Virus record (IMG/VR): IMGVR_UViG_3300025888_000275
Coordinates: 1 to 59,880 of that record
DNA: 59,880 bases
DNA from: a virus
Taxonomy: Duplodnaviria; Caudoviricetes
Strand: one strand, 5' to 3'
Shown piece after piece: positions 3,591-38,889 of the stretch (position 1 is the first letter of the stretch; every line of letters starts with the position of its first letter). The notes below the pieces were generated by a model that saw only the letters and a list, made by a program, of their open reading frames with translations, had not been told where the DNA came from and did no database searches. The translations under genes were made by a program, and so were the position numbers.

Positions 3591-3856
3591 ACCTTGGCAA
3601 GTTTCACATCCACCGGCACCGGTCGGCACTTTGCCACACCAGCGGTGGAGTGTTTGTAAACTTCGATGATGCTGCCGGTGCGAACCCCGGCCTTATTTGT
3701 GAAGATTGCCGCCTACGATACCGAAACATAACCGGAACCGACATTAAAAAAAACACAATTGATAAACCGCTTTTAAGAGCAACAACTGAATATTATGAAC
3801 ATTTCAATATATGTGATGATCGCGCCAAAACACAAATGGATAAATCAGGAGGTTGA
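3587..3856 (+). CDS. Hypothetical protein
   Basis: ATGA overlap at 3587; contains CEDC. Confidence 0.45.
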   Translation: MNLGKFHIHRHRSALCHTSGGVFVNFDDAAGANPGLICEDCRLRYRNITGTDIKKNTIDKPLLRATTEYYEHFNICDDRAKTQMDKSGG

Positions 3857-4523
3857 ATTATTGAAACGAGACTTTCCAACCCGCCGAACGGATTTGATTG
3901 CTGCTGAATTGAAATTGGCCTATCACATCGTAGCCAATAAGGCCTACCGTATTGGGTTGAAAAAAACAGATACTTTTTTGCACTCAGCGGAATGCAACCG
4001 GTTGGATGGCATAAAAGGCGCATCGACCCGGTTCGTTAAAGGACAGGTACCTCCTAATAAGGGATTACCCATGAGCGATGCGCTTCGCGAAAAAGTAAAA
4101 CATACCTGGTTCCCGAAAGGCCATGAACCGCCGAATACTAAATACGACGGATACGAACGAATTTCGAAAGATGGGTACCGCGAAGTGAGGGTGAGCAAAG
4201 GAAAATTTGTAGCACTTCACCGAAAAAACTGGGAAGCCCAAAACGGGCCAATCCCTGAAGGCATGATCATGAAATCGATTGACGGCGACCCGACCAATTG
4301 TGACCCGGCGAACTGGTACCTGATCAACCGTGCCAACCAGCTTGGCGAAAACTCCGGTCGCAATGAATTAGCAGATAGCTACATCATTTCAAAACTGGCA
4401 CATAAACACACTGAATTAAAGGCTGCATTCGCCGAAATGCCCGAACTAATTGAATTAAAAAGAAGTCAAATCAAACTAAAACGTACAATCAATGAGCTTA
4501 CTGAAATTACAACAAATGATTGA
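3816..4523 (+). CDS. HNH-endonuclease-like phage protein
   Basis: FVKGQVPPNKG and FPKGHEPPN repeats, ERISKDGY, LHRKNWEAQNGPIPEG, DGDPTNC..NW; the first HNH histidine appears replaced. Confidence 0.7.
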   Translation: MIAPKHKWINQEVELLKRDFPTRRTDLIAAELKLAYHIVANKAYRIGLKKTDTFLHSAECNRLDGIKGASTRFVKGQVPPNKGLPMSDALREKVKHTWFPKGHEPPNTKYDGYERISKDGYREVRVSKGKFVALHRKNWEAQNGPIPEGMIMKSIDGDPTNCDPANWYLINRANQLGENSGRNELADSYIISKLAHKHTELKAAFAEMPELIELKRSQIKLKRTINELTEITTND

Positions 4524-4941
4524 TAGTGGTAAAACATACTACTATCGCGAACAACCAGCTGTTTTTAAATCGTTTGACAACCTTGCTACTGAAATTGAAA
4601 TCCTTGTCGAGATAAACGGCAAACCTCAAAAATTTATAAAAGAAACTGAGGATAAAATAGGGCTGTTCCTCCAATGTTTTAAGGAGGTACCTGTTATTAC
4701 CGATGCTGATGTTGAATCAACAGGAAAGAACCTTCCGGCACAAAACAAACAAACCTATGTTCCTGAAATTTACATCAATACGAAAGACCTTTTTAAGTCA
4801 TTAAGCGACAAGCTACTTGAAGATATTGATACTGTGCGCAAGAAACCAGAGTATGTGAACCAGGCTAAACAGGTATGCAACAACGTGAGCGCAATCGTTA
4901 ACATCACCAAATTACAGCTTCAGCTGCTTCAAAACGGATAG
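4492..4941 (+). CDS. Hypothetical protein
   Basis: Overlaps the HNH-like gene; 149 aa ORF. Confidence 0.65.
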   Translation: MSLLKLQQMIDSGKTYYYREQPAVFKSFDNLATEIEILVEINGKPQKFIKETEDKIGLFLQCFKEVPVITDADVESTGKNLPAQNKQTYVPEIYINTKDLFKSLSDKLLEDIDTVRKKPEYVNQAKQVCNNVSAIVNITKLQLQLLQNG

Positions 4942-4943
4942 TC

Positions 4944-5699
4944 ATGAAAGAAATACCAATTTTATTCAGCACGCCAATGGTGCAAGCCATTTTGGAAGGC
5001 CGCAAAACTATGACCAGGAGAATTGTAAAGGATATTCATTCCGAAAGTCAGTATTTACCTGAATTCAAATTATCAGGATTCACATTTATTGAACCTGATC
5101 AATTTGAAAAACCTCACAACGAAAAGATCGCATCAGTTATTTCATGCCGATACGGCCAACCTGGCGATGTGCTTTGGGTAAGAGAAGCGTGGTGCTTGGA
5201 TTTATTAAATAGAAATGTTTATAAAGCTGATAGAGAAACGGATGGTGTTGGCCGAAAATTCTCATTTTCACCTTCCATCCACATGCCAAAAGCCGCTGCC
5301 CGTATCTGGTTGCAGGTTGAATCAATAAGGGTGGAACGGCTGAACGAAATACATTATCAGGATGCCATTGCTGAAGGAATAGAACGATTTGGAGATGACT
5401 CATGGAAGGATTACCAAAGTAAAACTGGCGAAACATATTATAGCAATCCAAGACTATCATTTAAATCACTTTTCCTTTCCATTAATGGGAAGCCAAAGCC
5501 AGTAAGAGAACGTGGCGAAACCGGTAAAATACTTTCGTACACGGCCATTGCCTGGGATCAGGAAGACTACGAAAAAACCTGGAAAAAATTTTACGGAGTT
5601 TACCGAAATAAACCACTTCATGTAATTATCAACCCATGGGTTTGGGTCGTCAAATTCAAAGTGCTGAGCACAACAGGGAAAGCAAACTTGAAACCTTAA
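4944..5699 (+). CDS. ASCH/PUA-like conserved phage protein
   Basis: PILFSTPMVQAILEGRKTMTRR, YGQPGDVLWVRE, PSIHMP, NPWVWV motifs. Confidence 0.75.
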   Translation: MKEIPILFSTPMVQAILEGRKTMTRRIVKDIHSESQYLPEFKLSGFTFIEPDQFEKPHNEKIASVISCRYGQPGDVLWVREAWCLDLLNRNVYKADRETDGVGRKFSFSPSIHMPKAAARIWLQVESIRVERLNEIHYQDAIAEGIERFGDDSWKDYQSKTGETYYSNPRLSFKSLFLSINGKPKPVRERGETGKILSYTAIAWDQEDYEKTWKKFYGVYRNKPLHVIINPWVWVVKFKVLSTTGKANLKP

Positions 5700-5712
5700 A
5701 CTGATAAGAAAT

Positions 5713-6153
5713 ATGCCAACAATCATCATTCCACAGTCGCAAATAACTGACATACTACCGGTACTCGATCGTAAAGCTTCCGATTTTCAGGTGGTAACTA
5801 TCTCAATTCGCAAACGGAAACGATTAATTGTAAAAGGCGAATTGTTGCACTTGTACTTTCGTAATCAGAACAAAAGGCTCGAAAAACTTGCAGTAGTAAA
5901 GTGTAAAGCGGTTGATAATTCAGGGAAAATGCAGTTAGTAACCCTGAGAAATACATACGACCGCAAGTATTACCTGAACCGGAAAGTAAAAGCGGCAGGG
6001 TTTAAACTGGAGCTGGAACTGACCGCGAAAACGATAATGGTAACTCCTGAGATGGCTGGTTCGATGAACTCACCAACTATGGCAAAGGGAATGAAAGCGC
6101 TGAAGGAGTTAAGCAGGGATTACAATTACGGGGTGCAATACATGCTGATATAA
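5713..6153 (+). CDS. Hypothetical basic protein
   Basis: ORF in the early operon. Confidence 0.6.
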   Translation: MPTIIIPQSQITDILPVLDRKASDFQVVTISIRKRKRLIVKGELLHLYFRNQNKRLEKLAVVKCKAVDNSGKMQLVTLRNTYDRKYYLNRKVKAAGFKLELELTAKTIMVTPEMAGSMNSPTMAKGMKALKELSRDYNYGVQYMLI

Positions 6154-6222
6154 AGCCCCCTCTAAATCTACTCCCGGTGGGGGAGACTTAAAAACGCACT
6201 AATCAACAATTAAGCTATAACC

Positions 6223-6579
6223 ATGACTGAAATAAAACGCATTGAAGCACAAATACCCGATACCGGAACGTTTTTTCTGGCATTCCCTTCGCCACAGAAA
6301 GACCTGATTGATATTGCAGAGAATCCCACCAAAATGGTGATAGTTGACGGAAATAGGGAAACAATGGTTGTACGTGGCGATTTTTTCAGGTACCCGCTGA
6401 ACATGATGAGCAACCTGATTTGTGAAATTACTTACGGGCACGATGCCGCATGGACCAGCCGACACCTGAAACAAAAATACCCTTACCTGAAGGAGGATAG
6501 TAAGATTGCTTTCTTTCTGTTTAAACGAATAGTCTTGAACACGATTAAGGGATTAGAGGATGGACAGGATTATGAGTAA
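6223..6579 (+). CDS. Hypothetical protein
   Basis: ORF with A-rich leader. Confidence 0.6.
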   Translation: MTEIKRIEAQIPDTGTFFLAFPSPQKDLIDIAENPTKMVIVDGNRETMVVRGDFFRYPLNMMSNLICEITYGHDAAWTSRHLKQKYPYLKEDSKIAFFLFKRIVLNTIKGLEDGQDYE

Positions 6580-6611
6580 ACAATTTGAAACCTTTTTAAA
6601 CTTATATAATT

Positions 6612-6953
6612 ATGGGACTTTATATTTATCTTACAGATCAGGACAGAATCAGCATGAGACAAGTTGCAGATGTGGAATTAAAAGAAATATTTGACGAAGC
6701 ACTACAACATGATAAATCACTGATGATTTCAGCAATCAATCACACCGAAAGCCAAGGATTGTTTAAAAAGCCGAAACAAACAATCAGGTATTCAATTTAC
6801 CACGAATGTTTCATTAATGGCAATCCTGCATTTCAAGCCAGACAGCAAATTTCTGCATCTGGATCAAAGCAACTTGTAATTGCATATCTATATGGAATTA
6901 TCAACGGCAGTTTATCAAAAATAGGCTTGAGTTCATTTATAAAACCCTTATAA
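6612..6953 (+). CDS. Hypothetical protein
   Basis: AT-rich ORF. Confidence 0.6.
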   Translation: MGLYIYLTDQDRISMRQVADVELKEIFDEALQHDKSLMISAINHTESQGLFKKPKQTIRYSIYHECFINGNPAFQARQQISASGSKQLVIAYLYGIINGSLSKIGLSSFIKPL

Positions 6954-6986
6954 ATAGACCTTTTGAAACCTTAAATACTATAAAAC

Positions 6987-7250
6987 ATGAAAATATCAGG
7001 TGTAGTAATTCAAAATCGAAACATATCAGAAAATACTGAGAATGATTTCGTTGCCACTTATAAAGGCAAAAGTATAGTAATATCTACAAATCATGGGTTT
7101 GGAAAACCTAAATGGGATCACCTTAAAAGATATAACATTGACGTAAAAGACATCAAATTAGGAATGTACGATGTACAATCCTATGAAGATTGCCATGAAA
7201 TGAGGGATGCAATACGATTAGCACTAAAAGGAGCTTGTTTAATCCCTTGA
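6987..7250 (+). CDS. Hypothetical protein
   Basis: AT-rich ORF. Confidence 0.6.
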   Translation: MKISGVVIQNRNISENTENDFVATYKGKSIVISTNHGFGKPKWDHLKRYNIDVKDIKLGMYDVQSYEDCHEMRDAIRLALKGACLIP

Positions 7251-7354
7251 TAGTTCAACTATACCACAATTAAAATACAGAGATTAACACAGATAAACAA
7301 TTCAACCAAACAATATTCAACGCTGAATTACCAATATTCAATACCCAAACACTA

Positions 7355-10300
7355 ATGATCGCACAAGATACTATCCAGAAAGTACTGTCAGCCGCCAATA
7401 TTACCGAAGTGGTTTCCGAATTTGTGAACCTGAAGAAGAAAGGCGTGAATTACCTGGGCGTTTGCCCTTTTCATAACGAGAAAACCCCGTCGATGGTCGT
7501 CAGTCCGGCCAAAGGTATTTTTAAATGTTTTGGCTGCGGAAAGGCTGGTAATGCCATTAGTTTCGTGATGGAGCATGAAGCGATGACTTATCCGGAAGCG
7601 ATTGAATACGTGGCTAAAAAATACCATGTCGAAATCCCGAAGGTTGAAATGACTGAGGATGAAATGCGCAAACGCAGCGAGCGCGATACACTGTTTGCGA
7701 TGAACCGTGTAGCAGCTACATTTTACGCCGACAACCTGAAGAACCATGGACAGGCTATTACTTACCTGAAAGACCGCGATTTTGATCTGACCGACATTGA
7801 TAAATTTAGTTTGGGAAGTATTGGTGTCGCCTGGGACGAATTTCTGAAACATGCCACATCGCTGGGTTATAATCCACAGCAATTGCACAAAGCCGGATTG
7901 TTGGGAAAGAAGGAGACGGGAGACGGGAGACGGGAGACGGGAGAACGATATTATGACCGATTCCGCGACCGGGTGATATTCCCGTATTTCGATCTGATGG
8001 GTCATGTGGTTGGCTTTACGGGGAGGATACTGCCTTCGACTGCTTCGCGCTCAGGCAGCGATGCCAAGGATGATGGGCAGGCGAAATACCTGAATTCTCC
8101 GGAGACGGAAGTATTTCATAAGGGGAGATTGTTGTATGGCTTATTTCAGGCAAAACAGGCCATTGTGAAGGAAGGAAAAGCTTACCTGGTTGAAGGCAAT
8201 ACCGATGTAATCCGTTTTCATAAACAAGGGCTGACCAATACCATTTGCACATCGGGAACCGCTTTAACGGTTGAACATGCCCGGCTGATCCGCCGGTTTA
8301 CCAACAACCTGACTATCCTGTTCGATGGTGACGGCGCTGGGTTGAAAGCAGCGGTAAAAGGCATTGATATTTGTATTCAGGAGGGATTGAACGTATATGT
8401 GGCCCTGCTTCCAACAGGCGAAGATCCGGACACGTTTGCAAAAGGGAAAAGCCGCGACGAACTGTACCACTGGATTGAGGATAATGAGAAAGATTTTATT
8501 TTGCTGATGTGCGACCTTGCAGCAAAAGACATTGAGCAAAAGCCAGCCGAAAAGGGAAAACTGATCAACGAACTGTTGGACATTGTAAAGAAGGTTCCCG
8601 ATCTGATTACCCGCGAAACTTACTTTTCGGAGGTGGCCAACAAATTCAGTATTGACCGCAAAAAGGTAGAAGCCGGAATTTTTAAGGAAGAGAAAGCTGA
8701 TGAGTTGTTTGGCATGATTGTAAACGAAACGGCCATCCGCGAAAAAGACCAGGTGTTTATCTATACTTCAAAAGAAACCGCTTTTGCCAATACCGGGTCC
8801 GACCTTGAAACGAATTCGATTGTTGTTTCAGGATTATTGACCGCCGTACAGATCGGAAAGCTAAGCGGTATAACTAAAAACTTAGTTTTTGCTGAAGAGT
8901 TTGACTACAAACATTCTACCTCATGTCGCGCAGGGTTGGAAGTTTCGCCGGAAGACATTATTAAAACTCAGCGGCAAATCAAACAGATGAAGTTTCTGGC
9001 AGAAAACGGATTTACGGTGTTGCTGAATTGCGGAGATCGTTATGGAAAAGATCAGGAATACGTTTCATTCTCAACCTTCTATTTTGATTTTCTGGCCGAA
9101 AGCATCAAACCTTACGATCCGGATTCGAAGAAAGAAGCGGTAGAAGCAGCTGCCGAATTCCTGAGCAAGTTGGACAACACGACCATATCGATTAAGACTG
9201 CCGAGATTGCCAAACGTTTCAACCTGTCGAAAGCCGACTTTGCACAGGTGCTGAAACCATTCCTGAGCAAGGTGAAAAACAAGGTGCAGCAGCGCAACGA
9301 GGAAATAATGATCGATGATGAGCATTACGTTTTTTCGATTGAGAAGCTGCCCGATTACGTGGATCAAAAGTTTTTCAATAAATACAATCATTTTGCCGCC
9401 CAGAATAAAGACGGTAAAAAGATATTTTATGTATTTGCCACCGAACATGGCACATTGACCAAAGTTGGGAACTTCTACATGGAACCGCAGTTTCAGGTAT
9501 TTTCAGACGATCCGCTGAAGAACAAACGTATATGTAAACTCAACCATGCCGATTTGCGGTCGTCGAAATACGTGGAGATCCCCAGTAACGAAATGATTGA
9601 ATTTGGAGCGTTCAAAAAGTTCCTTTTCAGGCAGGGTCCTTACCTACTCCGGAATGCCAAAGTATTTCACCTTGACACCATACTTGACTCCATAGCGCTG
9701 AATTTTCCGGTGGCCTACGAGCTGACTATTTTTGGACAGCAGAACGAGGATTTCTATGCCTTCAGCAATGCCGTATTTGCCGAAAACAAGATCAAATACA
9801 TGAACGACCTTGGATTGATTGAACATGGGGATACCACGTTTTATTCGCCCTCCATTTCAGTCATTTATAAGGACGTTCGCAAAGATGAAGATCAGTTTGC
9901 ACTCGACCGCTTCTTTATTTACCGCGAAAACAAAAATGTTCATTTCAAAGAATGGGCTGAATTGGTGCGCGAAGTATATAAAGCGAACGACAACGGCTGC
10001 TGGACGGTACTGATGGCCATCATGTGCGCCTTCAGGAGCGACATTTTCAAGATCGACCGGTTGTTTACCACCCTGTTTTTTATCGGGCCTACCGAGTGCG
10101 GAAAATCGCAGCTGGCACAATCGATCCGTGCGCTGTACATTCACCCCGATGCGCCAATGTTTAACCTGAACTCCGGCACAGACGCCGCATTTTTCACCAT
10201 GCTCCAGCGTTACCGCGATGCGCCGGTAGTGATGGAAGAATACAACGATCAGCAAATTTCAGATATTAAATTTCAGGGATTGAAAGCCTCGATTTACGAC

Positions 10301-11338
10301 GGTGAAGGAAAAACCAAACGACAGGGCGCCCAGGGAACGGCGCTGGATGTTAGCCAGGTAAACGCTGTACCGATTCTGTTGGGTCAGGAAGCTCCGGAAC
10401 GTGACGATGCTTCGCTGGGAAATAGATGTGTATTGTGCCCGGTACCGAAGAAAGAATTATGGAGCGACAACGAGGTGGCTAATTTTCAACTCCTGAAACG
10501 CTGGGAGAAGGAAGGACTTACAGAAATACTCTTCGAAGTATTGAAGTGTAGGCCAATAGTGAGAGATCATTATCAGAACAAATTGCGCATAGTACAAAAA
10601 GAACTCCGCATGGATCTGACCGCCGATCATTCGGCATTTCAAACCAGGATATTAGCGACCGTGTCGCTATTTCTGGCTATGGTGAAGTTATTTGAGGAAC
10701 ATGTTCCGGGGCTGGAATTGCCATTTACCTATTCGGAATTTTACCAGATCGCCCGGAAGAAGCTGATCCAACAGAGCGAAAGCATTACCAGCTCCAACCG
10801 TCTGGCTGTATTCTTCGACACATTTGTACAACTCACTGAAGATACCCGTAACGGGCTGATCCGTGGCAAGGAATATAAGATTGAATTGCTCGATGAGATT
10901 ACCATCCGCGAAGGGCAAAAGAACAGCACCGTGAAGAATTTCGATGAAGGGCCTAAACGCGTATTGTTTGTCCGGCTGGAAGTGATTCACCCCAAATACC
11001 GCGACCGTGTGGGTATTCAGGAACATTTAAAAATGAATAACCTTCAGAACTACCTGAAAGATCACCCGGCCTATATTGGCGCGGTAAAGCATACCACCTT
11101 CACCTGGCAGAACGAAATACGCAACATTGCCGACGATGGCAGCGGCAGGGTGATTTCGACCATGTTCGAAGAATCGAAACGCACCAGCGCCATTGCGCTT
11201 GACTACGAGAAGCTGGGTATTGATCTGGGCAGTTCGAGCCAGATGGAGAGCGTGAAGCCACTAACGCCGGAACAACAGGCTGTCAGTTTGCAATTGCAGA
11301 TGTACCCGAATGGAAAAGGAGATGGTTTGCCATATTAA
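7355..11338 (+). CDS. dnaG: DnaG-type primase fused to a C-terminal P-loop helicase
   Basis: CHC2 zinc finger CPFH..CFGC, RFRDRVIFP, KYLNSPET, Toprim VEG.D and FDGD.AG, Walker A GPTECGKS and Walker-B-like VVMEE. Confidence 0.9.
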   Translation: MIAQDTIQKVLSAANITEVVSEFVNLKKKGVNYLGVCPFHNEKTPSMVVSPAKGIFKCFGCGKAGNAISFVMEHEAMTYPEAIEYVAKKYHVEIPKVEMTEDEMRKRSERDTLFAMNRVAATFYADNLKNHGQAITYLKDRDFDLTDIDKFSLGSIGVAWDEFLKHATSLGYNPQQLHKAGLLGKKETGDGRRETGERYYDRFRDRVIFPYFDLMGHVVGFTGRILPSTASRSGSDAKDDGQAKYLNSPETEVFHKGRLLYGLFQAKQAIVKEGKAYLVEGNTDVIRFHKQGLTNTICTSGTALTVEHARLIRRFTNNLTILFDGDGAGLKAAVKGIDICIQEGLNVYVALLPTGEDPDTFAKGKSRDELYHWIEDNEKDFILLMCDLAAKDIEQKPAEKGKLINELLDIVKKVPDLITRETYFSEVANKFSIDRKKVEAGIFKEEKADELFGMIVNETAIREKDQVFIYTSKETAFANTGSDLETNSIVVSGLLTAVQIGKLSGITKNLVFAEEFDYKHSTSCRAGLEVSPEDIIKTQRQIKQMKFLAENGFTVLLNCGDRYGKDQEYVSFSTFYFDFLAESIKPYDPDSKKEAVEAAAEFLSKLDNTTISIKTAEIAKRFNLSKADFAQVLKPFLSKVKNKVQQRNEEIMIDDEHYVFSIEKLPDYVDQKFFNKYNHFAAQNKDGKKIFYVFATEHGTLTKVGNFYMEPQFQVFSDDPLKNKRICKLNHADLRSSKYVEIPSNEMIEFGAFKKFLFRQGPYLLRNAKVFHLDTILDSIALNFPVAYELTIFGQQNEDFYAFSNAVFAENKIKYMNDLGLIEHGDTTFYSPSISVIYKDVRKDEDQFALDRFFIYRENKNVHFKEWAELVREVYKANDNGCWTVLMAIMCAFRSDIFKIDRLFTTLFFIGPTECGKSQLAQSIRALYIHPDAPMFNLNSGTDAAFFTMLQRYRDAPVVMEEYNDQQISDIKFQGLKASIYDGEGKTKRQGAQGTALDVSQVNAVPILLGQEAPERDDASLGNRCVLCPVPKKELWSDNEVANFQLLKRWEKEGLTEILFEVLKCRPIVRDHYQNKLRIVQKELRMDLTADHSAFQTRILATVSLFLAMVKLFEEHVPGLELPFTYSEFYQIARKKLIQQSESITSSNRLAVFFDTFVQLTEDTRNGLIRGKEYKIELLDEITIREGQKNSTVKNFDEGPKRVLFVRLEVIHPKYRDRVGIQEHLKMNNLQNYLKDHPAYIGAVKHTTFTWQNEIRNIADDGSGRVISTMFEESKRTSAIALDYEKLGIDLGSSSQMESVKPLTPEQQAVSLQLQMYPNGKGDGLPY

Positions 11339-11424
11339 CGTGTTGTAGCTATGAGCAGGTTTGCGTTGCACCACGTATTAAGTTACATAAAACCTATCCG
11401 CAAACTTGCTTATAGGTGCGGTTA
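11336..11424 (+). repeat. attC-like site 1 (TAAC...GTTA imperfect hairpin)
   Basis: TAAC 11336-11339 includes the primase stop; arms CTATGAGCAGGTTTGCG / CGCAAACTTGCTTATAG; GTTA 11421-11424. Confidence 0.7.
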
Positions 11425-11450
11425 TGCGTTGTTATTTAATTATCAATATT

Positions 11451-11816
11451 ATGAATTTAGATATAGGGAACAAACCACTTAAAGAATTGACCGCCGAAAA
11501 CATCATGCAAATTGTAATGATTATCGGGTCTGCTCCTTCATTAGAATTTTGGAACGAACCTGTATTGCTGGATTTTACAAACACATTATTTAGTGATACA
11601 ATAGTTATTGACTATGTCAGTTATAGAAAATCTGACAATAAAAAAAGTTGTCAATACACGTTCTTTTTTGATTTTAAAAGATTCAGTTGGCATTACATTA
11701 AAGATTTTGAAATCTATCATAAATGGCAAAGATACCACAGTAGCAAGCTGGGTCTACCCGAATTGCGTTATCTTATTTCGCAGGGCTTCGATGTCCCGCT
11801 TTATAATAACGCATAA
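11451..11816 (+). CDS. Cassette gene 1, hypothetical
   Basis: AT-rich ORF whose stop lies inside the TAAC of site 2; start at 11451. Confidence 0.7.
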   Translation: MNLDIGNKPLKELTAENIMQIVMIIGSAPSLEFWNEPVLLDFTNTLFSDTIVIDYVSYRKSDNKKSCQYTFFFDFKRFSWHYIKDFEIYHKWQRYHSSKLGLPELRYLISQGFDVPLYNNA

Positions 11817-11931
11817 CGGTCTTTTGCTTGACGCAGGTGGGGAATTTAACCGGATCGCCACCTAAGTACAGATTTCATCCGGTTACTTGTCAGAGAGCGA
11901 ATATGCCCCACTTGACGGCAAGCAAATGTTA
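11814..11931 (+). repeat. attC-like site 2
   Basis: TAAC-GGTCT-TTTGCTTGACGCAGGTGGGG ... CCCCACTTGACGGCAAGCAAA-T-GTTA with an inner stem TAACCGGAT/ATCCGGTTA. Confidence 0.75.
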
Positions 11932-11951
11932 TTGGGCGTTTTAATTAGTCA

Positions 11952-12425
11952 ATGATGAAAAAATACACAAAACAAAAATTACTAGATGCTTTTGATCATT
12001 ACGCAGATTGTCAGACAATAAGAGTAGATCACGAAGAAAACGACTACTTAGAAAATACTATGAGTAGTGTGATGTTTGTGACGTTAGTTGAAAAACTATT
12101 TTATGAAATTGAAATGGGAGTTATGCAAGAATCTGAACCTAAATTTAAAATTGGAGATAGGGTATTTGCTAAATTTGATTACGAAACATCCAGCACCGGA
12201 AGTTTTAAAGATGGAACAGAAAAACAAAGCGTTGAATGTGATGGAAAGGTAGTTGCTGGATATAATAATGATTTAATCGTTGAATCAATTAGTAAATTCA
12301 GGGTTGCCTCATATCAAAATAATGGTTTGATGGGAACAAATTGTTCGAGAAACGCTAAGTCTTGGTATGAAATAAGAGAGGAAACGCTAAAATCTCCGTT
12401 GTCTGCCATTTTAAATGCCCTATAA
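11952..12425 (+). CDS. Cassette gene 2, hypothetical
   Basis: AT-rich ORF with PKFKIGDRV motif; stop lies inside the TAAC of site 3. Confidence 0.7.
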   Translation: MMKKYTKQKLLDAFDHYADCQTIRVDHEENDYLENTMSSVMFVTLVEKLFYEIEMGVMQESEPKFKIGDRVFAKFDYETSSTGSFKDGTEKQSVECDGKVVAGYNNDLIVESISKFRVASYQNNGLMGTNCSRNAKSWYEIREETLKSPLSAILNAL

Positions 12426-12510
12426 CGGTCCCCGTATTGACGCAGTTGGCAACTTGTTCACTGCGTCTGGCTCCGTAAAAGTGTCCGCCAATTGCCGCAA
12501 TACGGTGTTA
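12423..12510 (+). repeat. attC-like site 3
   Basis: TAAC-GGTCC-CCGTATTGACGCAGTTGGC ... GCCAATTGCCGCAATACGG-T-GTTA. Confidence 0.75.
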
Positions 12511-12545
12511 TAATTTGTTTTTAATTACTTATAAAAATTGAAACT

Positions 12546-12734
12546 ATGTCAAGAACTAAAGGAAGTGGTTGGGGCGGTGGAGTTTTACTCTACCAGAAAT
12601 GTCCAATCTGTCAAAAGAAAAAGGCATTATATGATCCATTGCCTCAAAATATATCATTCAAATGCACAAGTTGTAAGGCTCGATTCTACGATGAAAGTTT
12701 GATATGTCGAACTCATCCAGAACCGATTAAATAA
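12546..12734 (+). CDS. Cassette gene 3, small Zn-ribbon protein
   Basis: CPIC...CTSC; followed by TTATAAC. Confidence 0.65.
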   Translation: MSRTKGSGWGGGVLLYQKCPICQKKKALYDPLPQNISFKCTSCKARFYDESLICRTHPEPIK

Positions 12735-12780
12735 ATTATAACGGATACCTATACAAAACACCATTTAAAATCAAACACTT

Positions 12781-13596
12781 ATGAAAAAACTTTTGGCCAG
12801 TTACGAAGCAGAATTGCAGCTTCGTAACTATTGTTATCATACCGTGAAGTGCTATGTCGGGTTAGTCCGATCCTTCATCATGCACTTTTACAAACATCCT
12901 ACCTTTATTTCCGAGGAAGAAATCAAAATTTATCTTCTCAAATCATCTTCTCAGGCACTTTTGAAACAGCGCATCAGCGCAATTAAGCGATTTTATGAGT
13001 TGGTTATTAAGGACCCTCTGAAATTTAAGTATATACAGTACCCGCGAACAGAGCAGCATTTGCCAGATATCCTTTCATTTGATGAAGTGCAACGGCTATT
13101 TACTACCTGTACAAATTTGAAACACAAAGCAATCCTGTTTTTGTTCTACTCTACCGGCATGCGCGAAGGCGAAGTAATCAACCTGAAAATAAAGGATATT
13201 GATAGTGGACTTATGCAAATACATATTCGCCAGGCCAAAGGGAAAAAAGACCGGATTGTTCCGCTATCAGAACCGACGTTAAAAGCCTTACGAGTATATT
13301 TCAAAGAAGAAAAACCCCACAACTACCTGTTCAATGGCCAGTTTTCCGACCGTTATTCAGCCACATCCATTCAGCAATTTGTTAAAAAATATGCTACAAT
13401 TGCCAAAATCAAAAAGCGCGTTTATCCTCACCTTTTGCGCCACTGTTCAGCTACACATTCCTACGAATCAGGGACGGATTTAATGATTCTTCAAAAAATA
13501 TTGGGCCACAGCCAAATAAAAACGACTCAAATTTACACTCATCTTTCAAACAACCTCCTATCAAAAGTAAGAACGCCGGACATGGCGCTTGTATAG
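12781..13596 (+). CDS. Tyrosine recombinase (XerD/integron-integrase-like, without IntI insertion)
   Basis: SAM-like N-terminus (LRNYCYHTVKCY); catalytic GMR, KGKKDR, HLLRH, LGH, IYTH all intact. Confidence 0.92.
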   Translation: MKKLLASYEAELQLRNYCYHTVKCYVGLVRSFIMHFYKHPTFISEEEIKIYLLKSSSQALLKQRISAIKRFYELVIKDPLKFKYIQYPRTEQHLPDILSFDEVQRLFTTCTNLKHKAILFLFYSTGMREGEVINLKIKDIDSGLMQIHIRQAKGKKDRIVPLSEPTLKALRVYFKEEKPHNYLFNGQFSDRYSATSIQQFVKKYATIAKIKKRVYPHLLRHCSATHSYESGTDLMILQKILGHSQIKTTQIYTHLSNNLLSKVRTPDMALV

Positions 13597-13963
13597 GTAA
13601 AGTGTGGACGGAGAAAGAACGCATTGAATGAGATTATCAGATATTTTAAAACCAATAAAAATGGAAAAACTATCAAACAAACAAATGATTGAAGTAATAA
13701 AATTTGTTGTGGAACAAAGAGAAACGCGAGCTTCCAGATTACAGATAAAATTTTTGTGGGGGTATAATCGGGCTGATAACACAATGGAAGAACTTGAAAA
13801 ACTGGGCGTTGTTGGAGAGTCTAAGGGCGTGATTGGTCGTGAGGTAATAATATCACTAAATGATGCAACTAAATTAATTAAGCAACTCAATGATTCATGC
13901 AGCGAATAGCCTGACTTATAACGACGATGATTTATACTCTGTATAATTAAAGTGTGGACGGAG
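13590..13963 (+). repeat. 24-bp direct repeats flanking the FtsK-gamma gene
   Basis: TGTATAGGTAAAGTGTGGACGGAG at 13590-13613 and TGTATAATTAAAGTGTGGACGGAG at 13940-13963 (22/24 identical). Confidence 0.85.
13661..13909 (+). CDS. Stand-alone FtsK gamma (winged-helix) domain protein
   Basis: ASRLQIKFLWGYNRADNTMEELEKLGVVGESKGVIGREVI resembles the FtsK-gamma consensus (S.LQR...IGYNRA.R..E.LE..G.VG...G...REVL). Confidence 0.75.
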   Translation: MEKLSNKQMIEVIKFVVEQRETRASRLQIKFLWGYNRADNTMEELEKLGVVGESKGVIGREVIISLNDATKLIKQLNDSCSE

Positions 13964-13995
13964 TATTGAAAGGGGAAAATAGAGGTTTCAGGAGG

Positions 13996-14020
13996 GATTG
14001 CTTCGTGCCTCGCAATGACG
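13996..14020 (+). repeat. REP-like family A (GATTGCTTCGTGCCTCGCAATGACG), representative copy
   Basis: Identical copies at 21013, 24511, 33112, 40469; reverse copies at 46518 and 59344; variants near 15010, 15815, 23782-23855, 34308, 34780, 53278. Confidence 0.85.
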
Positions 14021-14105
14021 GGTTGAAGGACATTTCCATAATCAGGAGGAAAAAGTTTTGAGAAGGAAAAAAATAATAAAAAAAGCAACTGACAGTCAAA
14101 AGGGT

Positions 14106-14640
14106 GTTCCCGCGTTCCCGCGTTCCCGCACCCCGTGCCCCACGCTTTCAAAAAACCAGAATAAAACGATTTTGCAAATCTCATGCCATTGAAAACCAGA
14201 CAGATAAAGTAAGTAAATAATGATAAAAAAAGTAATAATCTCTCTCTGTAAGTTGCGGGAACGCTGGGTCACGCTGGGTCACGATCTGAAAATTACTAAT
14301 TTTTGGGTCACGGTGGGTCACGGCGGGATAGACGTTTTTAGCCGTGCCCCAACTTTTAATAAAAATAAGTATTTGAAAACTAATGTGTTAATCCGTGGCG
14401 GTTAGTCGCGGGAACGCGGGACAGAGAAATGGCAAAAAAAGGCCTTTTGAAAAAAAAAATATTTTTTTTGCCCGAAAAACCCCAAAAAACCGATAATAAA
14501 TAAACCGAAGTCTATTAAATTTTAATAATCAATAGATATTATTTATAAAATAATATTAAAAAATGTTCAAAAAATTAGAAAAGTAATAAAAAGAAGGGTG
14601 AAAAACTATTTAACAATTTTTAAAAAAGAACCGTTTTGAA
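14106..14640. other. Putative replication origin
   Basis: GTTCCCGC x3 (14106-14129), inverted GCGGGAAC copies (14255, 14408), TGGGTCACG x4, then a long A/T tract; downstream of the primase-helicase. Confidence 0.5.
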
Positions 14641-14809
14641 CACGATTAAAGGATTAAATGATTTACAGGATTAAAAGAGGGGGTCCCTACTCGTATAAGT
14701 TTGCCGGATCTGAGAGCGAAGTTTTCAAACAGATTGGTAGTGGTGTAGCTGTTCAAATGGTTCAGTGGGTAGGAAATGAAGCAATTAAATACTTTAATAA
14801 GATAGCAGT

Positions 14810-15001
14810 ATGACCGTTAAATTTTACATATTTCAGCGCGACGACCAAACGGGAAAAACCCGTGACAGATATTTGTTTAAGGACGAACGGAGTGAATTAG
14901 CAGTTGGTATCCGGGTGAAACACATGAATACGACCTACCAAGTTGATTCGATGGAATTTATTGGTAAGACTCTCAAAGCGGTATGTTTAGAAGTACCTTG
15001 A
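14810..15001 (+). CDS. Small hypothetical protein
   Basis: 63 aa ORF followed by a REP pair and a terminator. Confidence 0.55.
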   Translation: MTVKFYIFQRDDQTGKTRDRYLFKDERSELAVGIRVKHMNTTYQVDSMEFIGKTLKAVCLEVP

Positions 15002-20969: not shown

Positions 20970-21095
20970 AAAAATTGACTATTAGACTATTTACGATTTA
21001 CGATTTGGAACAGATTGCTTCGTGCCTCGCAATGACGATCTAATCAGCGCGCGTTAAATAGTAAATAGTAAATAAAAAAAATAGTAAATAAAAAA

Positions 21096-24476: not shown

Positions 24477-24579
24477 GAAATTAGAAATTAGGTGCTGCAA
24501 ATAAGGGTAAGATTGCTTCGTGCCTCGCAATGACGGGTTAAAATAGTAAATAGTAAATAATTAAATAGTAAATAGTATC

Positions 24580-28795: not shown

Positions 28796-29278
28796 AATAT
28801 TGATAAATTAAGATTATTCCAGATTGTCGGCCCTGGAATTTGGCCGTGTATGATTATGTTACTTTTTGTAGTTGCCTGATTCTATGAGTTTCCTCATTTG
28901 CCTAACCAGCTTGAGCTGGCTGTTGGTTGCTGATACCTTTGATTCGATTCTGCTTATGTAATCGGTCATTTCCTGAAGTGTCAAAGTAGTTGTCATTTTG
29001 TCGCGTTTTAATTATGACCGAAAGTAAAGGACTTAAAAGACCTAAAACTATGACAAAAGTCATAGTTTGAAAATTATTGCAAAAAAGATTGAAAATGTGC
29101 TGAAATACCAATAAAATAAGGCAAATATAATTTAAAAAAAGTTTTAAAAAGACAAAAAATAGGCTAATTTGTTGAATTGTTAAATATAAAAGTAATAAAA
29201 TAACCGCGCAAAATTGAAGGAAAGGCAAAGAAATTGATTAATTAAACATATAAACAAAGGGGCTTTCAGGCTTCCCTG

Positions 29279-29656
29279 GCAATGCGACTGATGCAATGTG
29301 ACTGATGCAATGCGACTGATGCAATGCGACTGATGCAATGCGATTGATGCAACATGACTGATGCAACATGACTGATGCAACATGACTGATGCAACATGAC
29401 TGATGCAATGTGACTGATGCAATGCGACTGATGCAATGCGACTGATGCAATGTGACTGATGCAATGCGACTGATGCAATGTGACTGATGCAATGCGACTG
29501 ATGCAATGTGACTGATGCAATGTGACTGATGCAATGCGACTGATGCAATGTGACTGATGCAATGTGACTGATGCAATGTGACTGATGCAATGTGACTGAT
29601 GCAATGTGACTGATGCAATGTGACTGATGCAATGTGACTGATGCAATGTGACTGAT
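29279..29656. repeat. 14-bp tandem array, 27 units
   Basis: GCAATG(T/C)GACTGAT, including four GCAACATGACTGAT variants. Confidence 0.95.
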
Positions 29657-29976
29657 GCAATGTGACCAGGTGCAAGGATGCAAGGTTGCATCTATAATAT
29701 AAGGTAGCAATGTGACCAGGTGCAAGGATGCAAGGTTGCATCTATAATATAAGGTAGCAATGTGATCAGGTGCAAGGATGCAAGGTTGCATCTATAATAT
29801 AAGGTAGCAATGTGATCAGGTGCAAGGATGCAAGGTTGCATCTATAATATAAGGTAGCAATGTGATCAGGTGCAAGGATGCAAGGTTGCATCTATAATAT
29901 AAGGTAGCAATGTGATCAGGTGCAAGGATGCAAGGTTGCATCTATAATATAAGGTAGCAATGTGATCAGGCGCAAG
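29657..29976. repeat. 50-bp tandem array, 6 units plus a partial
   Basis: GCAATGTGA(C/T)CAGGTGCAAGGATGCAAGGTTGCATCTATAATATAAGGTA. Confidence 0.95.
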
Positions 29977-30321
29977 ACAATAGAGAAGAAGATATAATAT
30001 ATATTATGGTTAGTATAGACGACAAGGGGAGTCATATATCACTATGTTAAATAGACACGTAAGACGAAACGCTCAGTAGGGCGGGGCGCCCAACACTTCA
30101 CGGAAATTGAAAATTGAAAGTTGTACGATAGGTTTAAAACCACAGGATCAGGAGATTAGGCGACGGCTGTTTTGAATTAATACGCTGAACTTGCTGAAAA
30201 TGAATGGTAATGTTGAGCGGTTGTTACTCCCTGTGCTATGGTATAAAAAATAATTATAATCTTTTCGCTATATTAAATATATTTAGTATATATTTGCGTC
30301 AGGTTTAAAAAATATGATACC

Positions 30322-30705
30322 ATGCGGAAAGGAAAGTTAATTCATTTATTGAAAGGCGATAACGAGGAATTAAACATGGCTGCTGCCGAAGTTAATGCAA
30401 AGTCGAAAGCATCGTATATTGAGGATGTGTTTTTGCATTTGGTGTTGATGAACACTAAAAGGGAAGCCATTCCTGAATTTGAGATTGCAGAACTCGATAC
30501 AGATGGTGATGTAATTGGAATAAACATTGCCCTTGATACGGAAACAAATTACCACTTGCGATTGCTTGCGGTAACCGGTAAAACCAATCCCAAAGTTTAT
30601 ATGCAGAGTTTCCTCACTTGGTTGGCCAGCGAGCATAAGGCAAACGGACGGGTGTGGATTGACGATACACCGGCGAGGGCGCTGCCGATAAGGATGAGAA
30701 AGTAA
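30322..30705 (+). CDS. Hypothetical protein, possibly ribbon-helix-helix type
   Basis: Preceded by a TATATTTG (-7-like) box at 30289-30296. Confidence 0.55.
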   Translation: MRKGKLIHLLKGDNEELNMAAAEVNAKSKASYIEDVFLHLVLMNTKREAIPEFEIAELDTDGDVIGINIALDTETNYHLRLLAVTGKTNPKVYMQSFLTWLASEHKANGRVWIDDTPARALPIRMRK

Positions 30706-30807
30706 GGAAGACGGCCCCCTCTAAATCTCCCCCGAATGGGAGACTTGAAGAACGCTTTGAATGAGATTATTTATAACACAAAAGATTAACCATTAAAATT
30801 GAAGAAG

Positions 30808-31170
30808 ATGAAAACACCATTTAAAACATTTTGGAACTGGTTATTTCCATACAAAAATTATCCATCATGCCTTGCTGAAGAATTGGCAATTAAAACACCT
30901 TATACAGTTGAACAGCTTCAACCAATGATTGATATAATTAAGCATTATTTTGGTTTTGAAATGAAATCAAAAGAAGCTGAACAAACACACATTGTTAAAG
31001 AAAAGTCTTATAAGTGTATTGTTTTTGCAATGGAAAATAAATTTGATTTGTATTTTTCAGCATCAATGCTATACGCGCCTCCAATTGATCCTGATAAAGT
31101 AATTTATAACTCAGAACTTACTGCTAACATAAAAGGTGTAACCCTAAAATTTGAACCAGATGGGAAATAA
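30808..31170 (+). CDS. Hypothetical protein
   Basis: AT-rich ORF followed by a terminator. Confidence 0.55.
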   Translation: MKTPFKTFWNWLFPYKNYPSCLAEELAIKTPYTVEQLQPMIDIIKHYFGFEMKSKEAEQTHIVKEKSYKCIVFAMENKFDLYFSASMLYAPPIDPDKVIYNSELTANIKGVTLKFEPDGK

Positions 31171-31267
31171 CCAACTTGCCCAATACTACAACGAGCAATT
31201 CAAAATCACCCGAACATTAAATTCATTTAAATAGGATTAAACCGCGATTAGAAATCGCGGCACCCAT

Positions 31268-31301
31268 AAAAACCTCCGGCATAAACGCCGGAGGTTTTTT
31301 T
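31268..31301. terminator. Bidirectional terminator
   Basis: AAAAACCTCCGGC-ATAAAC-GCCGGAGGTTTTT. Confidence 0.75.
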
Positions 31302-31346
31302 GTGGGTTAATGGTAAATAGTAAATGAATAAATTGTAAATGAACTT

Positions 31347-31381
31347 GTCCTTTGATGTAAATACAGTTGCCTGTAATATTG
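31347..31381 (+). promoter_or_regulatory. Putative late promoter GTCCTTT-N24-(T/A)TTG, representative copy
   Basis: Same spacing at 38993, 39765, 57037, 59376; near-matches at 16504 and 44847. Confidence 0.6.
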
Positions 31382-31385
31382 GTAC

Positions 31386-31670
31386 ATGGAACGTGAAATG
31401 ACAATATGGCAAGCCATAGCCGAAATGAGAAAACTTACAGCCGAAAACACCAGTTTCTCGCTGGTGTACATGAGTTATAACCGGGGAAAACAAACCAGTC
31501 AGGGAGTGGTGCGGGTGAACAACGCGATACTGCGGACACAAACACATAAGGACGACAATCAGAATGCTGATTACATGCTTAACTACCTTGATAGAGAACT
31601 GAACCTGCCCCGCCAGTTCTACCAAATTGCACTGATGGAATTTAACGGATACCTTACAATACCAGAATAA
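31386..31670 (+). CDS. Hypothetical protein upstream of portal
   Basis: 94 aa ORF closely coupled to the next gene. Confidence 0.65.
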   Translation: MEREMTIWQAIAEMRKLTAENTSFSLVYMSYNRGKQTSQGVVRVNNAILRTQTHKDDNQNADYMLNYLDRELNLPRQFYQIALMEFNGYLTIPE

Positions 31671-31672
31671 TT

Positions 31673-33043
31673 ATGAAAACATATCACAATGGGAATGACT
31701 CGCTGGTTGAATTCGCTGATGTAGCCTACTACTTTTCGGTAAAGGGCGCTGCTTATGGTGAAACAAATACTATTGTATCTACCACACCGAGCATTACAAC
31801 GCCCTTACCCTTATCGATTAGCGGAGGGTATAATATCATATCGGAAGGCGATGATAATAAGTTTCCATACCAGTTGCGGCAACTGATTGATGATAATAAC
31901 CTGATTGGTGGTGTTATTAACCGCCAGCGTGGATTGCAATACGGCCAGGGATTGGCTTTATACCGCATTAAGTTTGAAAACGGCAGTCGTGTTGTTGAAT
32001 GGTTTTGGGACGATAAGATTGGTAAAGACCTTGAATTGTGGGATTACGAGGAATACCTTATTAATGTGTTGCTCGATTTGATTGTGAAACGCGAGTACAA
32101 TACAAAAATTATTGGAAATAAAGGGATGCGTGTTGGTGGCGCTGCTATTCCAACCAGTTTGAAGCATGTACCACTGGCCGATTGCCGCCGTGAATGGCCT
32201 GACGTAAAAGGGATAAACCGCAATATTTTTATTGCTGACTGGCGAAACGGAAATCCTGAAGTGATTGAACGCTACCCTGCGTTTGACCTGGTAAAAGGAT
32301 TGAACCAGCCAACATCTATTTACTACTACAGCGCTTACCAGTTTGGACGGAACCAGTTTGATTTTAATGTCCCTATTTTTCACGGAACGAGAAAGTGGAT
32401 TCAACGGAGCAATGTGGCCCCTGATATACTGAAGGCGCAGAGCGATAATGGCATGAACATAAAGTGGCATATTGTTGCGCCACAAAGTTACTGGGACAGC
32501 AAGCGCACCATACTGGAAGCCAGTTGCAAACAAAAGGGCATACCATACAAGGAACAAATGCTCGAAGACCTGAAGGATAAAGTTTTGCAAGGACTCACCA
32601 AAGTATTGTCGGGTATTGATAACGTCGGTAAATTTTTCTATTCTGAATCGGTTATGCAGGAGCTGGGTATTGGGCGGACTGAAATTATGAAGTGGGAAAT
32701 TACGGCGCTCGATATGAAGGTGAAGGATTTTACCGATGCACAGATCAATATTTCGAAACGGGCCGATAGCGCGATTACTTCGGGGGCCAACATGCCGCCA
32801 AGCCTTGCCAATATTATTGTTGACGGTAAACTTGCCAGCGGCAGCGAAAAACTGTACGATTACAAGTTGTTTATAGCCACCGAAATACCGATTGTACAAA
32901 TGCAGGCGCTTAAAGTAATGAACCTGTGGCGCAGAATGCGTTATCCAAATATTGACGGGCAGTTTGGTTTCTACCACGACATTGTGAAACGCGAGGAGAC
33001 TCTGACGGCAAGTGCAAGGCTGACGAATACGCAGAATGCGTAG
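31673..33043 (+). CDS. Portal protein
   Basis: 456 aa; GDDNKFP N-terminal motif, N.GKFF, LASGSEKLY; position after terL and before adaptor genes. Confidence 0.65.
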   Translation: MKTYHNGNDSLVEFADVAYYFSVKGAAYGETNTIVSTTPSITTPLPLSISGGYNIISEGDDNKFPYQLRQLIDDNNLIGGVINRQRGLQYGQGLALYRIKFENGSRVVEWFWDDKIGKDLELWDYEEYLINVLLDLIVKREYNTKIIGNKGMRVGGAAIPTSLKHVPLADCRREWPDVKGINRNIFIADWRNGNPEVIERYPAFDLVKGLNQPTSIYYYSAYQFGRNQFDFNVPIFHGTRKWIQRSNVAPDILKAQSDNGMNIKWHIVAPQSYWDSKRTILEASCKQKGIPYKEQMLEDLKDKVLQGLTKVLSGIDNVGKFFYSESVMQELGIGRTEIMKWEITALDMKVKDFTDAQINISKRADSAITSGANMPPSLANIIVDGKLASGSEKLYDYKLFIATEIPIVQMQALKVMNLWRRMRYPNIDGQFGFYHDIVKREETLTASARLTNTQNA

Positions 33044-33173
33044 GGAAGACGGAAGACGGAAGACGGGAGACCGAAGCCGGAAGAGCGCGAAGAATAAAGC
33101 TCTTAATGTGGGATTGCTTCGTGCCTCGCAATGACGGTAAATAGTAAATAATTAAATAGTAAATATTTTCAAG

Positions 33174-38294: not shown

Positions 38295-38374
38295 AAACAA
38301 CAATCCCCCGGTTCTCAGGCTGATTGCACAGCCTGCCGGGGGATATTAAATTCACATTTAACACCGTAAAGATC

Positions 38375-38635
38375 ATGAAAAAACAAGAAGAAAACAAAAC
38401 GGAGAATTGCACGCTTGTTAATGGCGTGATGCTGACCGAAGCCGCAGTAGATTTTATCAAATCGCTGCAACACGAGAATAACAGCTACCTTAAAGAGGTG
38501 TGCGAAGAACTGAACACAACAATTTCGATGTTGATTGATGTGCTGAACGATCCGGATGACGCTGCGGCTATTGTAGAACAGATTAAATACCTGAACACTT
38601 TCAGTAAAAACTTTAAAAGCCTGATGAAGCCATGA
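38375..38635 (+). CDS. Hypothetical protein (paralog A)
   Basis: VNGVMLTEAAVDFIKSLQ; start at 38375. Confidence 0.6.
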   Translation: MKKQEENKTENCTLVNGVMLTEAAVDFIKSLQHENNSYLKEVCEELNTTISMLIDVLNDPDDAAAIVEQIKYLNTFSKNFKSLMKP

Positions 38636-38889
38636 ACACACCGGAAATAAAAACAAACATCGAAGTAGGTGGCGTAGTACTCACCGAAAAAGCCATTGCC
38701 CGCCTTAAACAACTTCAGGAACGCGACAACGACGGAATTGACCACATGAGCAAAATTATACAGATGGGCATTCGCGCTATTGTTCGTAATCTCGACAATT
38801 TTGACCCGGAAGAAATGAAGAAAATACAAAGCGTATTAGTTGATCTGTCGTATGTTTGCGATTGGATTGAGGATTTGGAAAAGCCATAA
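38632..38889 (+). CDS. Hypothetical protein (paralog B)
   Basis: VGGVVLTEKAIARLKQLQ; ATGA overlap with paralog A. Confidence 0.6.
   Translation: MNTPEIKTNIEVGGVVLTEKAIARLKQLQERDNDGIDHMSKIIQMGIRAIVRNLDNFDPEEMKKIQSVLVDLSYVCDWIEDLEKP

Follow-up and report, generated by a model that had tools for sequence, protein, structure and literature searches.

The 59,880-nt record IMGVR_UViG_3300025888_000275, analysed here in its whole length and called the window below, is the genome of a tailed phage with genes for a head maturation protease and a tape measure protein; it is listed in IMG/VR as a provirus, and CheckV gives a completeness of 100%. We were interested in a short part of its plus strand, in which the gene of a primase-helicase is followed by three units, each made of a hairpin and an open reading frame (ORF), by a last TAAC motif and by the gene of a tyrosine recombinase (Table 1). 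The initial annotation, made from the sequence alone, had described three unrelated, AT-rich ORFs between imperfect hairpins that begin with TAAC and end with GTTA, with stop codons in or just before the TAAC and with the array joined to the primase stop codon, and had taken them for an integron-like cassette array served by a recombinase other than the integron integrase IntI. Its description of the locus is accurate. The ORFs are mutually unrelated (blastp E of at least 1.3) and their G+C content is 0.33, 0.33 and 0.37, against 0.46 for the primase gene and 0.42 for the genome. The TAA stop codon of the primase gene is the TAA of the first TAAC, ORF1 and ORF2 end in the same way in the next TAAC, and ORF3 stops 5 nt before the last one. 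No Pfam, NCBIfam or PHROG family was found for ORF1 or ORF2, and their Atlas matches were all below 0.9. With a probability of about 80%, we interpret the array as a phage-borne, integron-like platform for gene capture, with an adjacent Xer-like recombinase which lacks the IntI-specific insertion.

Table 1. The array and its borders in the window (z, fold score against shuffles of the plus strand as single-stranded DNA, minus strand in brackets; R1, covariance model of the hairpin sites).
Feature	Position	Strand	Remarks
Primase-helicase gene, DnaG-type, 1327 aa	7355-11338	+	left backbone border of the array; Pfam Zn_ribbon_DnaG, DNAG_N, Toprim
attC-like hairpin 1 (TAAC...GTTA)	11336-11424	+	z -1.53 (+0.34); R1 match E 5e-13
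Cassette 1 (hairpin 1 and ORF1), 478 nt if the crossover is AA/C	11339-11816	+	15-position end stem, G.T at position 11
ORF1, 121 aa	11451-11816	+	no family
attC-like hairpin 2, long class, 118 nt	11814-11931	+	z -3.80 (-2.11); R1 match E 3.6e-5
Cassette 2 (hairpin 2 and ORF2), 609 nt	11817-12425	+	boundaries at AAC
ORF2, 157 aa	11952-12425	+	no family
attC-like hairpin 3	12423-12510	+	z -2.87 (-1.96); R1 match E 1.8e-8
Cassette 3 (hairpin 3 and ORF3), 316 nt	12426-12741	+	own unitig (12423-12743) in peat metagenome contigs
ORF3, 62 aa	12546-12734	+	weak zinc-ribbon match (Pfam)
attI-like junction, TAAC at 12739-12742 and conserved sequence	12739-12780	+	immediately 5' of the start codon of the recombinase gene
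Tyrosine recombinase, 271 aa, XerA/IntI-like	12781-13596	+	without IntI insertion

IMG/VR was scanned by pattern, which gave 163 relatives, and we fetched 80 of the loci (recombinase identity 42-87%). The hairpins of the window belong to one structured family of sites with those of the other loci. The covariance model R1 was seeded with 34 sites of the shorter of two length classes, 32 from other loci and two from the window. When it was run over both strands of the window genome, the three hairpins were the only matches at E ≤ 1, including hairpin 2, which lies outside the seed. RNAalifold, applied to the MAFFT alignment of the 34 sites, gave 22 pairs, 17 of them with compensatory changes; 93.6% of the cells were paired, compared with 65.6% in shuffles (none of 500 reached the observed value) and at most 47.5% in controls with slid partners. 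The AAC and GTT are invariant, an asymmetric bulge of 4-5 nt and an unpaired spacer recur, and two G.T positions are conserved in 33 and 30 of the 34 sites. An AAC and GTT core, an unpaired spacer, strand-specific irregularities and the conservation of structure rather than sequence are the marks of an attC-type site, and all of them are present. The site lengths fall into classes of about 85-89 nt (31 sites) and about 120-129 nt (134 sites). Alignments mixing the two misaligned the arms, and the short class alone aligned well enough for a seed; naive TAAC/GTTA scans with minimum-free-energy folding were too noisy or too strict and were replaced by an arm-duplex scanner and then by the covariance model. 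Hairpins similar to hairpin 1 occur in two of the other loci (L060 and L070), and an Rfam search gave two sub-threshold chance matches and nothing more. The initial annotation had allowed that the hairpins might belong to an unrelated family of repetitive extragenic palindromes or terminators. Such an objection fails, since the repeat families found elsewhere in this genome are not matched by R1. As to the strand, 20 sites were picked by hand; the plus strand gives the better fold of the arms in 18, there is a tie in one, and one is an exception. This asymmetry and the two conserved G.T positions point indirectly to the plus strand as the one that would be folded.

The near-complementarity of the two ends of each cassette, recognized earlier over a shorter distance, extends in all three window cassettes to a stem of 15 positions with a G.T at position 11. 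Throughout the family, complementarity links the 14 nt that follow the GTT of a site with the 14 nt that close with the AAC of the site after it. Across one cassette a mean of 7.95 of 11 positions are complementary (n=163), whereas the two flanks of the same hairpin give 3.98 (n=230) and non-adjacent ends 4.01 (n=119). In 122 cassettes positions 1-9 are nearly always Watson-Crick pairs, with several pair types at each position, and position 11 is Watson-Crick in a single cassette, being G.T in 99, C.T in 17 and T.T in five. Positions 12-15 are paired in 109, 105, 100 and 76 of these cassettes, with no pairing past position 15. Because the ends co-vary although they lie several hundred nucleotides apart, their complementarity is most simply explained by a circular form of the cassette, in which they would close the hairpin.

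What exactly is the mobile unit? Two pairs of loci share a cassette. Positions 2305-3124 of L041 match 2766-3585 of L065 (91% over 821 nt), and the shared block runs from the TAAC before the upstream hairpin to the TAAC after the ORF; it is internal in L041, where another hairpin comes next, and terminal in L065, where it is followed by the recombinase leader. The cassette shared by L040 and L052 has the same pattern (95% over 835 nt), and the arms of its hairpin are alike, with one change that by eye appears to preserve pairing, while the loop has diverged. The unit is therefore a hairpin together with the ORF downstream of it, and the crossover falls in the plus-strand AAC. The longest ORF lies on the recombinase strand in 153 of 159 intervals. 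Stop codons often belong to the conserved cassette end: among 149 cases, 27 have the TAA of the TAAC as their stop, and 35 have a stop which ends 13 nt before the C. There is usually one ORF per hairpin, sometimes none or several.

Could these structures act on RNA, as processing or stabilizing stems flanking the ORFs, with the modules exchanged by homologous recombination between similar hairpins? Homologous exchange of modules has been proposed for the promoter-stem-loop cassettes of T4-type phages. The hairpins described here are intercistronic, the folded strand is the sense strand, the conserved wobbles are compatible with G.U pairs, and the end-to-end stems could in principle pair in a transcript. 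However, the breakpoints lie at the invariant AAC and not inside the similar arms, and homologous exchange would require more similarity than the hairpins of different cassettes have, their mean column identity being 34-48% in MAFFT alignments. In addition, the flanks of one and the same hairpin are not complementary past AAC and GTT, as would be expected for a site-specific crossover, and the last unit adjoins a conserved site at the recombinase gene which is not a hairpin at all. We regard this explanation as very improbable.

The position of the array next to the recombinase gene is a family trait. Of the loci, 64 have 1 kb or more of sequence upstream of the recombinase gene, and the arm-duplex scanner detected one or more sites in 63 of them, in arrays of up to 14 sites. 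Of the scanner's 233 plus-strand matches, 16 are downstream of the recombinase start and 217 upstream of it at a distance of up to 8 kb, including 81 in the nearest kb. R1 at E ≤ 0.01 gave 240 matches in the 990 kb of the 80 loci, 238 of them on the recombinase strand. As foreseen in the initial annotation, the relatives differ in the number and content of cassettes between conserved flanks; on the left, homologues of the C-terminal part of the primase (29-31% identical) lie upstream of the arrays in six other loci. On the right, about 40-65 nt ahead of the recombinase ATG, stands what we call the attI-like site, composed of the variable end of the last cassette with (T/C)AAC and then a conserved, clade-specific sequence. 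The sequence after the AAC has one form in the clade of the window and another in a clade about 50% identical, and the sequence before it is variable. In the five closest relatives, whose recombinases are 83-91% identical, nucleotide homology to the window extends only from 12736-12739 to the end of the recombinase gene. Two loci were considered as empty platforms and rejected, L014 because its sites are degenerate and L059 because a site is present; no clean empty platform was found in their clade. Twelve of the 13 relatives located in genome assemblies belong to Bacteroidota, and blastn of the window locus against GenBank phages gave no match. One relative, on a 451-kb contig of a Flavobacterium metagenome-assembled genome (L095), carries at 3691-7860 a 4.1-kb unit which adjoins the recombinase gene, has complementary cassette ends and contains SulP permease and NhaA antiporter genes; it is possibly a chromosomal version of the platform which carries host genes.

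The clearest differences between arrays come from cultured phages. In Polaribacter phage Leef_1 and Cellulophaga phage Ingeline_1 the order of genes is primase, small ORFs, integrase, and in Leef_1 sites are visible and the model has two matches. The Polaribacter phages Freya_1 and Freya_10 are 100% identical over 7158 nt of flanking sequence and differ by a 4.9-kb block of 12 annotated ORFs, which is bounded by AAC on the left and by the junction of AAC with the attI-like sequence on the right; Freya_1 has the shortest array state seen. Freya_10 is equal to Freya_9 plus a single hairpin-ORF unit of 307 nt, and the exact point of its insertion is the border of the last AAC with the attI-like sequence, 49 nt before the ATG of the integrase gene. 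A conserved site adjoining the integrase gene at which a new cassette is inserted is what defines an attI. The ten Freya isolates have seven genome lengths and carry different subsets of the array, 38% of which is shared, in three pieces, with the Danklef phages. Freya_9 also contains an apparent ORF-less cassette (L109, 3721-3808), whose ends are about 35 nt apart and fold on themselves, so the model matches it on the opposite strand. A further Polaribacter phage, P12002L (L010), has nine R1 sites, seven of them on the gene strand beside genes for a methyltransferase and a Mom-like protein. Two site clusters lie on its minus strand (30002-32931 and 38029-39251), each before methyltransferase or Mom-like genes.

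Cassette 3 of the window was also found apart from its neighbours. Eight sequencing runs contain part of the locus, six of them peat metagenomes and none listed as an RNA run, and we used the Logan contigs, that is assembled sequence, of four runs; three of the peat runs may be the source of the window DNA and are hence not independent. Positions 12423-12743 form a separate unitig in runs X2 and X5, with a depth of 43.1 in X2 (flanks 24.1 and 20.9) and 6.99 in X5 (flanks 5.3 and 4.5). Other sequence is joined before 12423 in X2, X4 and X6, and in X5 the 5' arm of a different hairpin follows 12743. The separate unitig, its extra depth and the other neighbours together indicate that cassette 3 exists in several contexts, with breakpoints at the predicted crossover. 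Joints at 10901>14636, 13637>13994 and 14020>15018 have sides of just 20-23 letters and were not used.

Are these, then, ordinary attC sites of bacterial integrons, of the kind known as CALIN (attC sites clustered with no integron integrase), which are moved by a bacterial IntI, while the neighbouring recombinase is a lysogeny integrase or a dimer resolvase? In its passages on phages, the study of Qi et al. (2023, PMC9892861) describes CALINs in phage genomes including P12002L, reads them as integron components and reports that IntI1 recombines five of six tested sites. According to its section 3.4, one of these was a predicted attC of P12002L, and sites related to the R1 family may work as attC. 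P12002L carries sites without a recombinase, the window record is classed as a provirus and has a single recombinase, and Bartlau et al. (2021, PMC8776804), where they discuss lifestyle, take such integrases as a sign of temperate life. A CALIN has by definition at least two attC sites and no IntI within the element; the window has three attC-like sites and no IntI. However, several findings speak against this reading: in 63 of 64 loci the sites directly precede the recombinase gene, 238 of 240 matches share its strand, insertions fall exactly at the conserved site before that gene, and the sequence after the AAC co-varies with the recombinase clade. The window genome has no second recombinase gene, and the relatives come from Bacteroidota, a group in which complete integrons are reported as nearly absent by Néron et al. 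(2022, PMC9024848). For this last reason a host IntI is unlikely to be the mover of the cassettes. The methyltransferase cassettes are noted by Qi et al. too, but the sites are attributed there to bacterial integrons and no phage recombinase is named in the text available for that paper, in which "Xer" does not occur and "tyrosine recombinase" appears in general statements only. Taken as a whole we consider this alternative improbable.

The platform reading depends largely on the recombinase. It has the Pfam domain Phage_integrase and an N-terminal SAM_4 domain, and the initial annotation had expected it to lack the IntI-specific insertion and to fail an IntI model. This proved correct. The integron-integrase models TIGR02249 (173.1 bits in two stretches, cut-off 265) and NF011946 (103.4 bits, cut-off 435) were below their cut-offs, and so were the best curated NCBIfam model, NF040815 of the XerA type (208.6 against 220), and the models of XerD (165.3 against 329.6) and XerC (162.3 against 335.15). 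Membership of IntI or of XerA, XerC or XerD was rejected on these grounds. The closest solved structures are XerA (5hxy and 4a8e). The match to IntI4 (2a3v) is split into residues 5-167 of the query with 6-174 of the chain and 193-266 with 243-316, so that at the break 25 query residues stand opposite 68 of IntI4; in a MAFFT alignment with IntI1, our comparator from plasmid integrons, the insertion is absent in all five family members, the window protein and four relatives. The R, K, H, R, H and Y columns are invariant in five relatives compared, and we assigned them by eye to the catalytic residues. The placement relative to IntI and Xer rests on pairwise scores. By this measure the Freya integrase, also of 271 aa, scores higher against family members than against XerD, XerC or IntI1. 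Its size, its domain layout and its best model and structures liken the window recombinase to the Xer proteins, but it falls below every Xer cut-off and is linked to cassette arrays, whereas Xer proteins act at a chromosomal dif site to resolve dimers.

Tyrosine recombinases are known to use single-stranded, folded att sites in filamentous phages of the CTX type. By analogy, an Xer-type enzyme would act in the array, too, on a hairpin of one strand; unlike in CTX-type phages, the sites here are many and arrayed, each is tied to a cassette, and the enzyme would be the phage's own. One may ask whether the Xer recombinases of the host act on the hairpins, as they do for XerCD-exploiting elements with folded single-stranded sites, with the phage protein as an accessory. 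The window recombinase is Xer-like, and it is followed directly by a stand-alone protein of 93 aa with an FtsK-gamma domain (13628-13909, plus strand, Pfam E 2.1e-13), a domain which activates XerD. However, tblastn found no homologue of this ORF at E ≤ 1e-4 in the other fetched loci searched, the phage protein retains all the catalytic residues in the five sequences compared, and the attI-like site co-varies with the clade of the phage recombinase. There is, in our opinion, only a very slight chance that the host enzymes are responsible. Some features around the recombinase gene may be mentioned in their own right. Copies of a 16-nt direct repeat lie on either side of the FtsK-gamma ORF (at about 13598 and about 13951), and in one run a contig joint, 13637>13994, skips the ORF; this joint is weak and was not used as evidence. 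Within the first codons of the recombinase gene lies a near-perfect 10-bp inverted repeat of the GTTAC...GTAAC type (12788-12835, plus strand), which by eye is retained in L002 and partly in L001 and could be a candidate regulatory or binding site.

Returning to the platform, how would it compare with a bacterial integron? The initial annotation had called it unusual that the recombinase gene lies downstream of the array in the same orientation. The arrangement is real, but by the polarity of the hairpins it is the canonical geometry of an integron, in which only the ORFs are inverted, because each hairpin belongs to the ORF downstream of it, the crossover is in the plus-strand AAC and the attI-like site abuts the 5' end of the recombinase gene. 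On the minus strand, as in bacterial integrons, the recombinase points away from the adjacent attI and the cassettes begin after G/TT and end with a hairpin; the plus strand corresponds to the folded "bottom" strand. In both systems the sites are imperfect palindromes between AAC and GTT which have an unpaired spacer and irregularities that differ between the strands. Both have cassette ends which would re-pair in a circle, a crossover in the G/TT or AA/C triplet, an insertion site beside the 5' end of the recombinase gene, and small, apparently promoter-less ORFs of foreign composition. The differences are that here the recombinase has no IntI-specific insertion and stays below the IntI cut-offs; that each ORF has its hairpin on the 5' side and is directed toward the recombinase, whereas in integrons the ORFs are co-oriented with the attC top strand and transcribed from a promoter at the integrase end; that the R stem of the circle would have 15 bp with a fixed non-Watson-Crick position 11; and that there are two site-length classes and the platform is found in phage genomes of Bacteroidota.

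We propose the following mechanism. The mobile unit would be an attC-like hairpin with its ORF, bounded on both sides by the AAC of (T/C)AAC. In the excised circle its ends would pair into a 15-bp stem which closes the hairpin, with an obligatory non-Watson-Crick pair at position 11. The folded site of the plus strand would then recombine with the attI-like site, double-stranded and located about 40-65 nt before the recombinase gene, with the crossover within the plus-strand AAC, that is G/TT on the minus strand, and new cassettes would as a consequence enter beside that gene. The catalyst would probably be the adjacent 271-aa Xer-like tyrosine recombinase without the I2 helix, which is the IntI-specific insertion. 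The cassette ORFs, which point toward the recombinase, are presumably read through from the replication operon; expression from the early operon of the phage, as suggested in the initial annotation, is likewise presumed.

Several observations weigh against this interpretation. The IntI-specific domain is held to be necessary for attC recombination, and recombinases without it near attC sites are held not to be integron integrases, in the statements on this domain in three papers (PMC4889954, PMC4792948, PMC7790495). That the 271-aa enzyme catalyses the recombination of cassettes is our inference from sequence, and it may be a lysogeny integrase instead, or in addition, because IMG/VR classes the record as a provirus and it is the sole tyrosine recombinase of a genome with no serine recombinase gene. 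The window protein scores 116 bits against Salmonella XerD and 97 bits against the Freya integrase, with which it has a low identity of 30%. P12002L has no recombinase match at E ≤ 1e-10, and Ingeline_1, with the same gene order as Leef_1, gives no model match. L014 (recombinase 63% identical) likewise has no model match and degenerate sites only, and in L099, a scaffold of Shiella aurantiaca with a recombinase 38% identical, three strong matches lie downstream of the gene on the opposite strand (10193-14993). Hairpin 3 of the window is the exception among the hand-picked sites and folds about equally well on the minus strand, and the plus-strand bias would be equally compatible with RNA structure since plus is the sense strand. 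ORF1 and ORF2 have no relatives anywhere else in IMG/VR. Finally, no circle junction was seen in the peat metagenomes, where the search reached assembled contigs and not raw reads.

Apart from the attC-like sites, the window contains other families of dispersed intergenic repeats, distinct from them. Copies occur, for example, at 13987-14021, 21004-21038, 24502-24536, 33103-33137 and 40460-40494, and another repeat at 6150-6199 has 12 more copies. These families include a GC-rich hairpin repeat, runs of TAAATAGTAAAT and short tandem runs of GGAGACG and GTCGCAGTGGTCAGT, and an element "...CGCAATGACGG" has a very high depth in peat metagenomes. At 29223-30056 there are long tandem arrays whose periods are 14 nt and 50 nt, and at 1756-1831 ARAGORN predicts a tRNA-like gene of undetermined identity, whose anticodon has four bases (catc).

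What could such a platform be used for? In a Pfam scan of 148 cassette ORFs, the longest of 204 candidates, we found N6_N4_Mtase in 16, C5 DNA_methylase in four, Dam in two and Mom in one, so that 23 of the 148 have one of these domains; PAPS_reduct occurs in three and YopX in two, and most other ORFs have no family. Orphan DNA methyltransferases are encoded by many cassettes of the family, and the most likely role of the platform is therefore to let the phage exchange its anti-restriction genes and other accessory genes.

The distinct system of gene capture and shuffling that the initial annotation postulated is supported by the variable arrays, the site family and the IntI-negative recombinase, and suggests that integron-style gene capture without the classical integron integrase is used by phages. 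In full-text searches of the literature we met no account of a recombinase other than IntI that serves cassette arrays of phages. We hypothesize, with moderate confidence, that this is a second lineage of integrons, in which hairpin-tagged cassettes are captured and reshuffled by a compact Xer-like recombinase that has no I2 helix. Such integrons would be widespread in phages of Bacteroidota and in some chromosomes of this phylum, and their main use would be the exchange of anti-restriction methyltransferases and other genes of counter-defence. The lineage would represent either a stage of integron evolution before the I2 helix or an independent invention of single-strand cassette recombination. 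Pairs of cultured phages which already differ by whole cassettes are at hand in Polaribacter phages Freya_1 to Freya_10, together with Leef_1. If our interpretation is true, a large family with the other hallmarks of integrons and no IntI-specific domain would directly test the view that cassette recombination requires this domain and the assumption that any other recombinase near attC sites is there by coincidence (PMC4889954), and it would bear on how single-strand recombination evolved from Xer. It would also give a reason for the CALINs already reported in phages. Perhaps phages, too, own gene-capture platforms, as a counterpart of the defence-rich integrons of bacteria.

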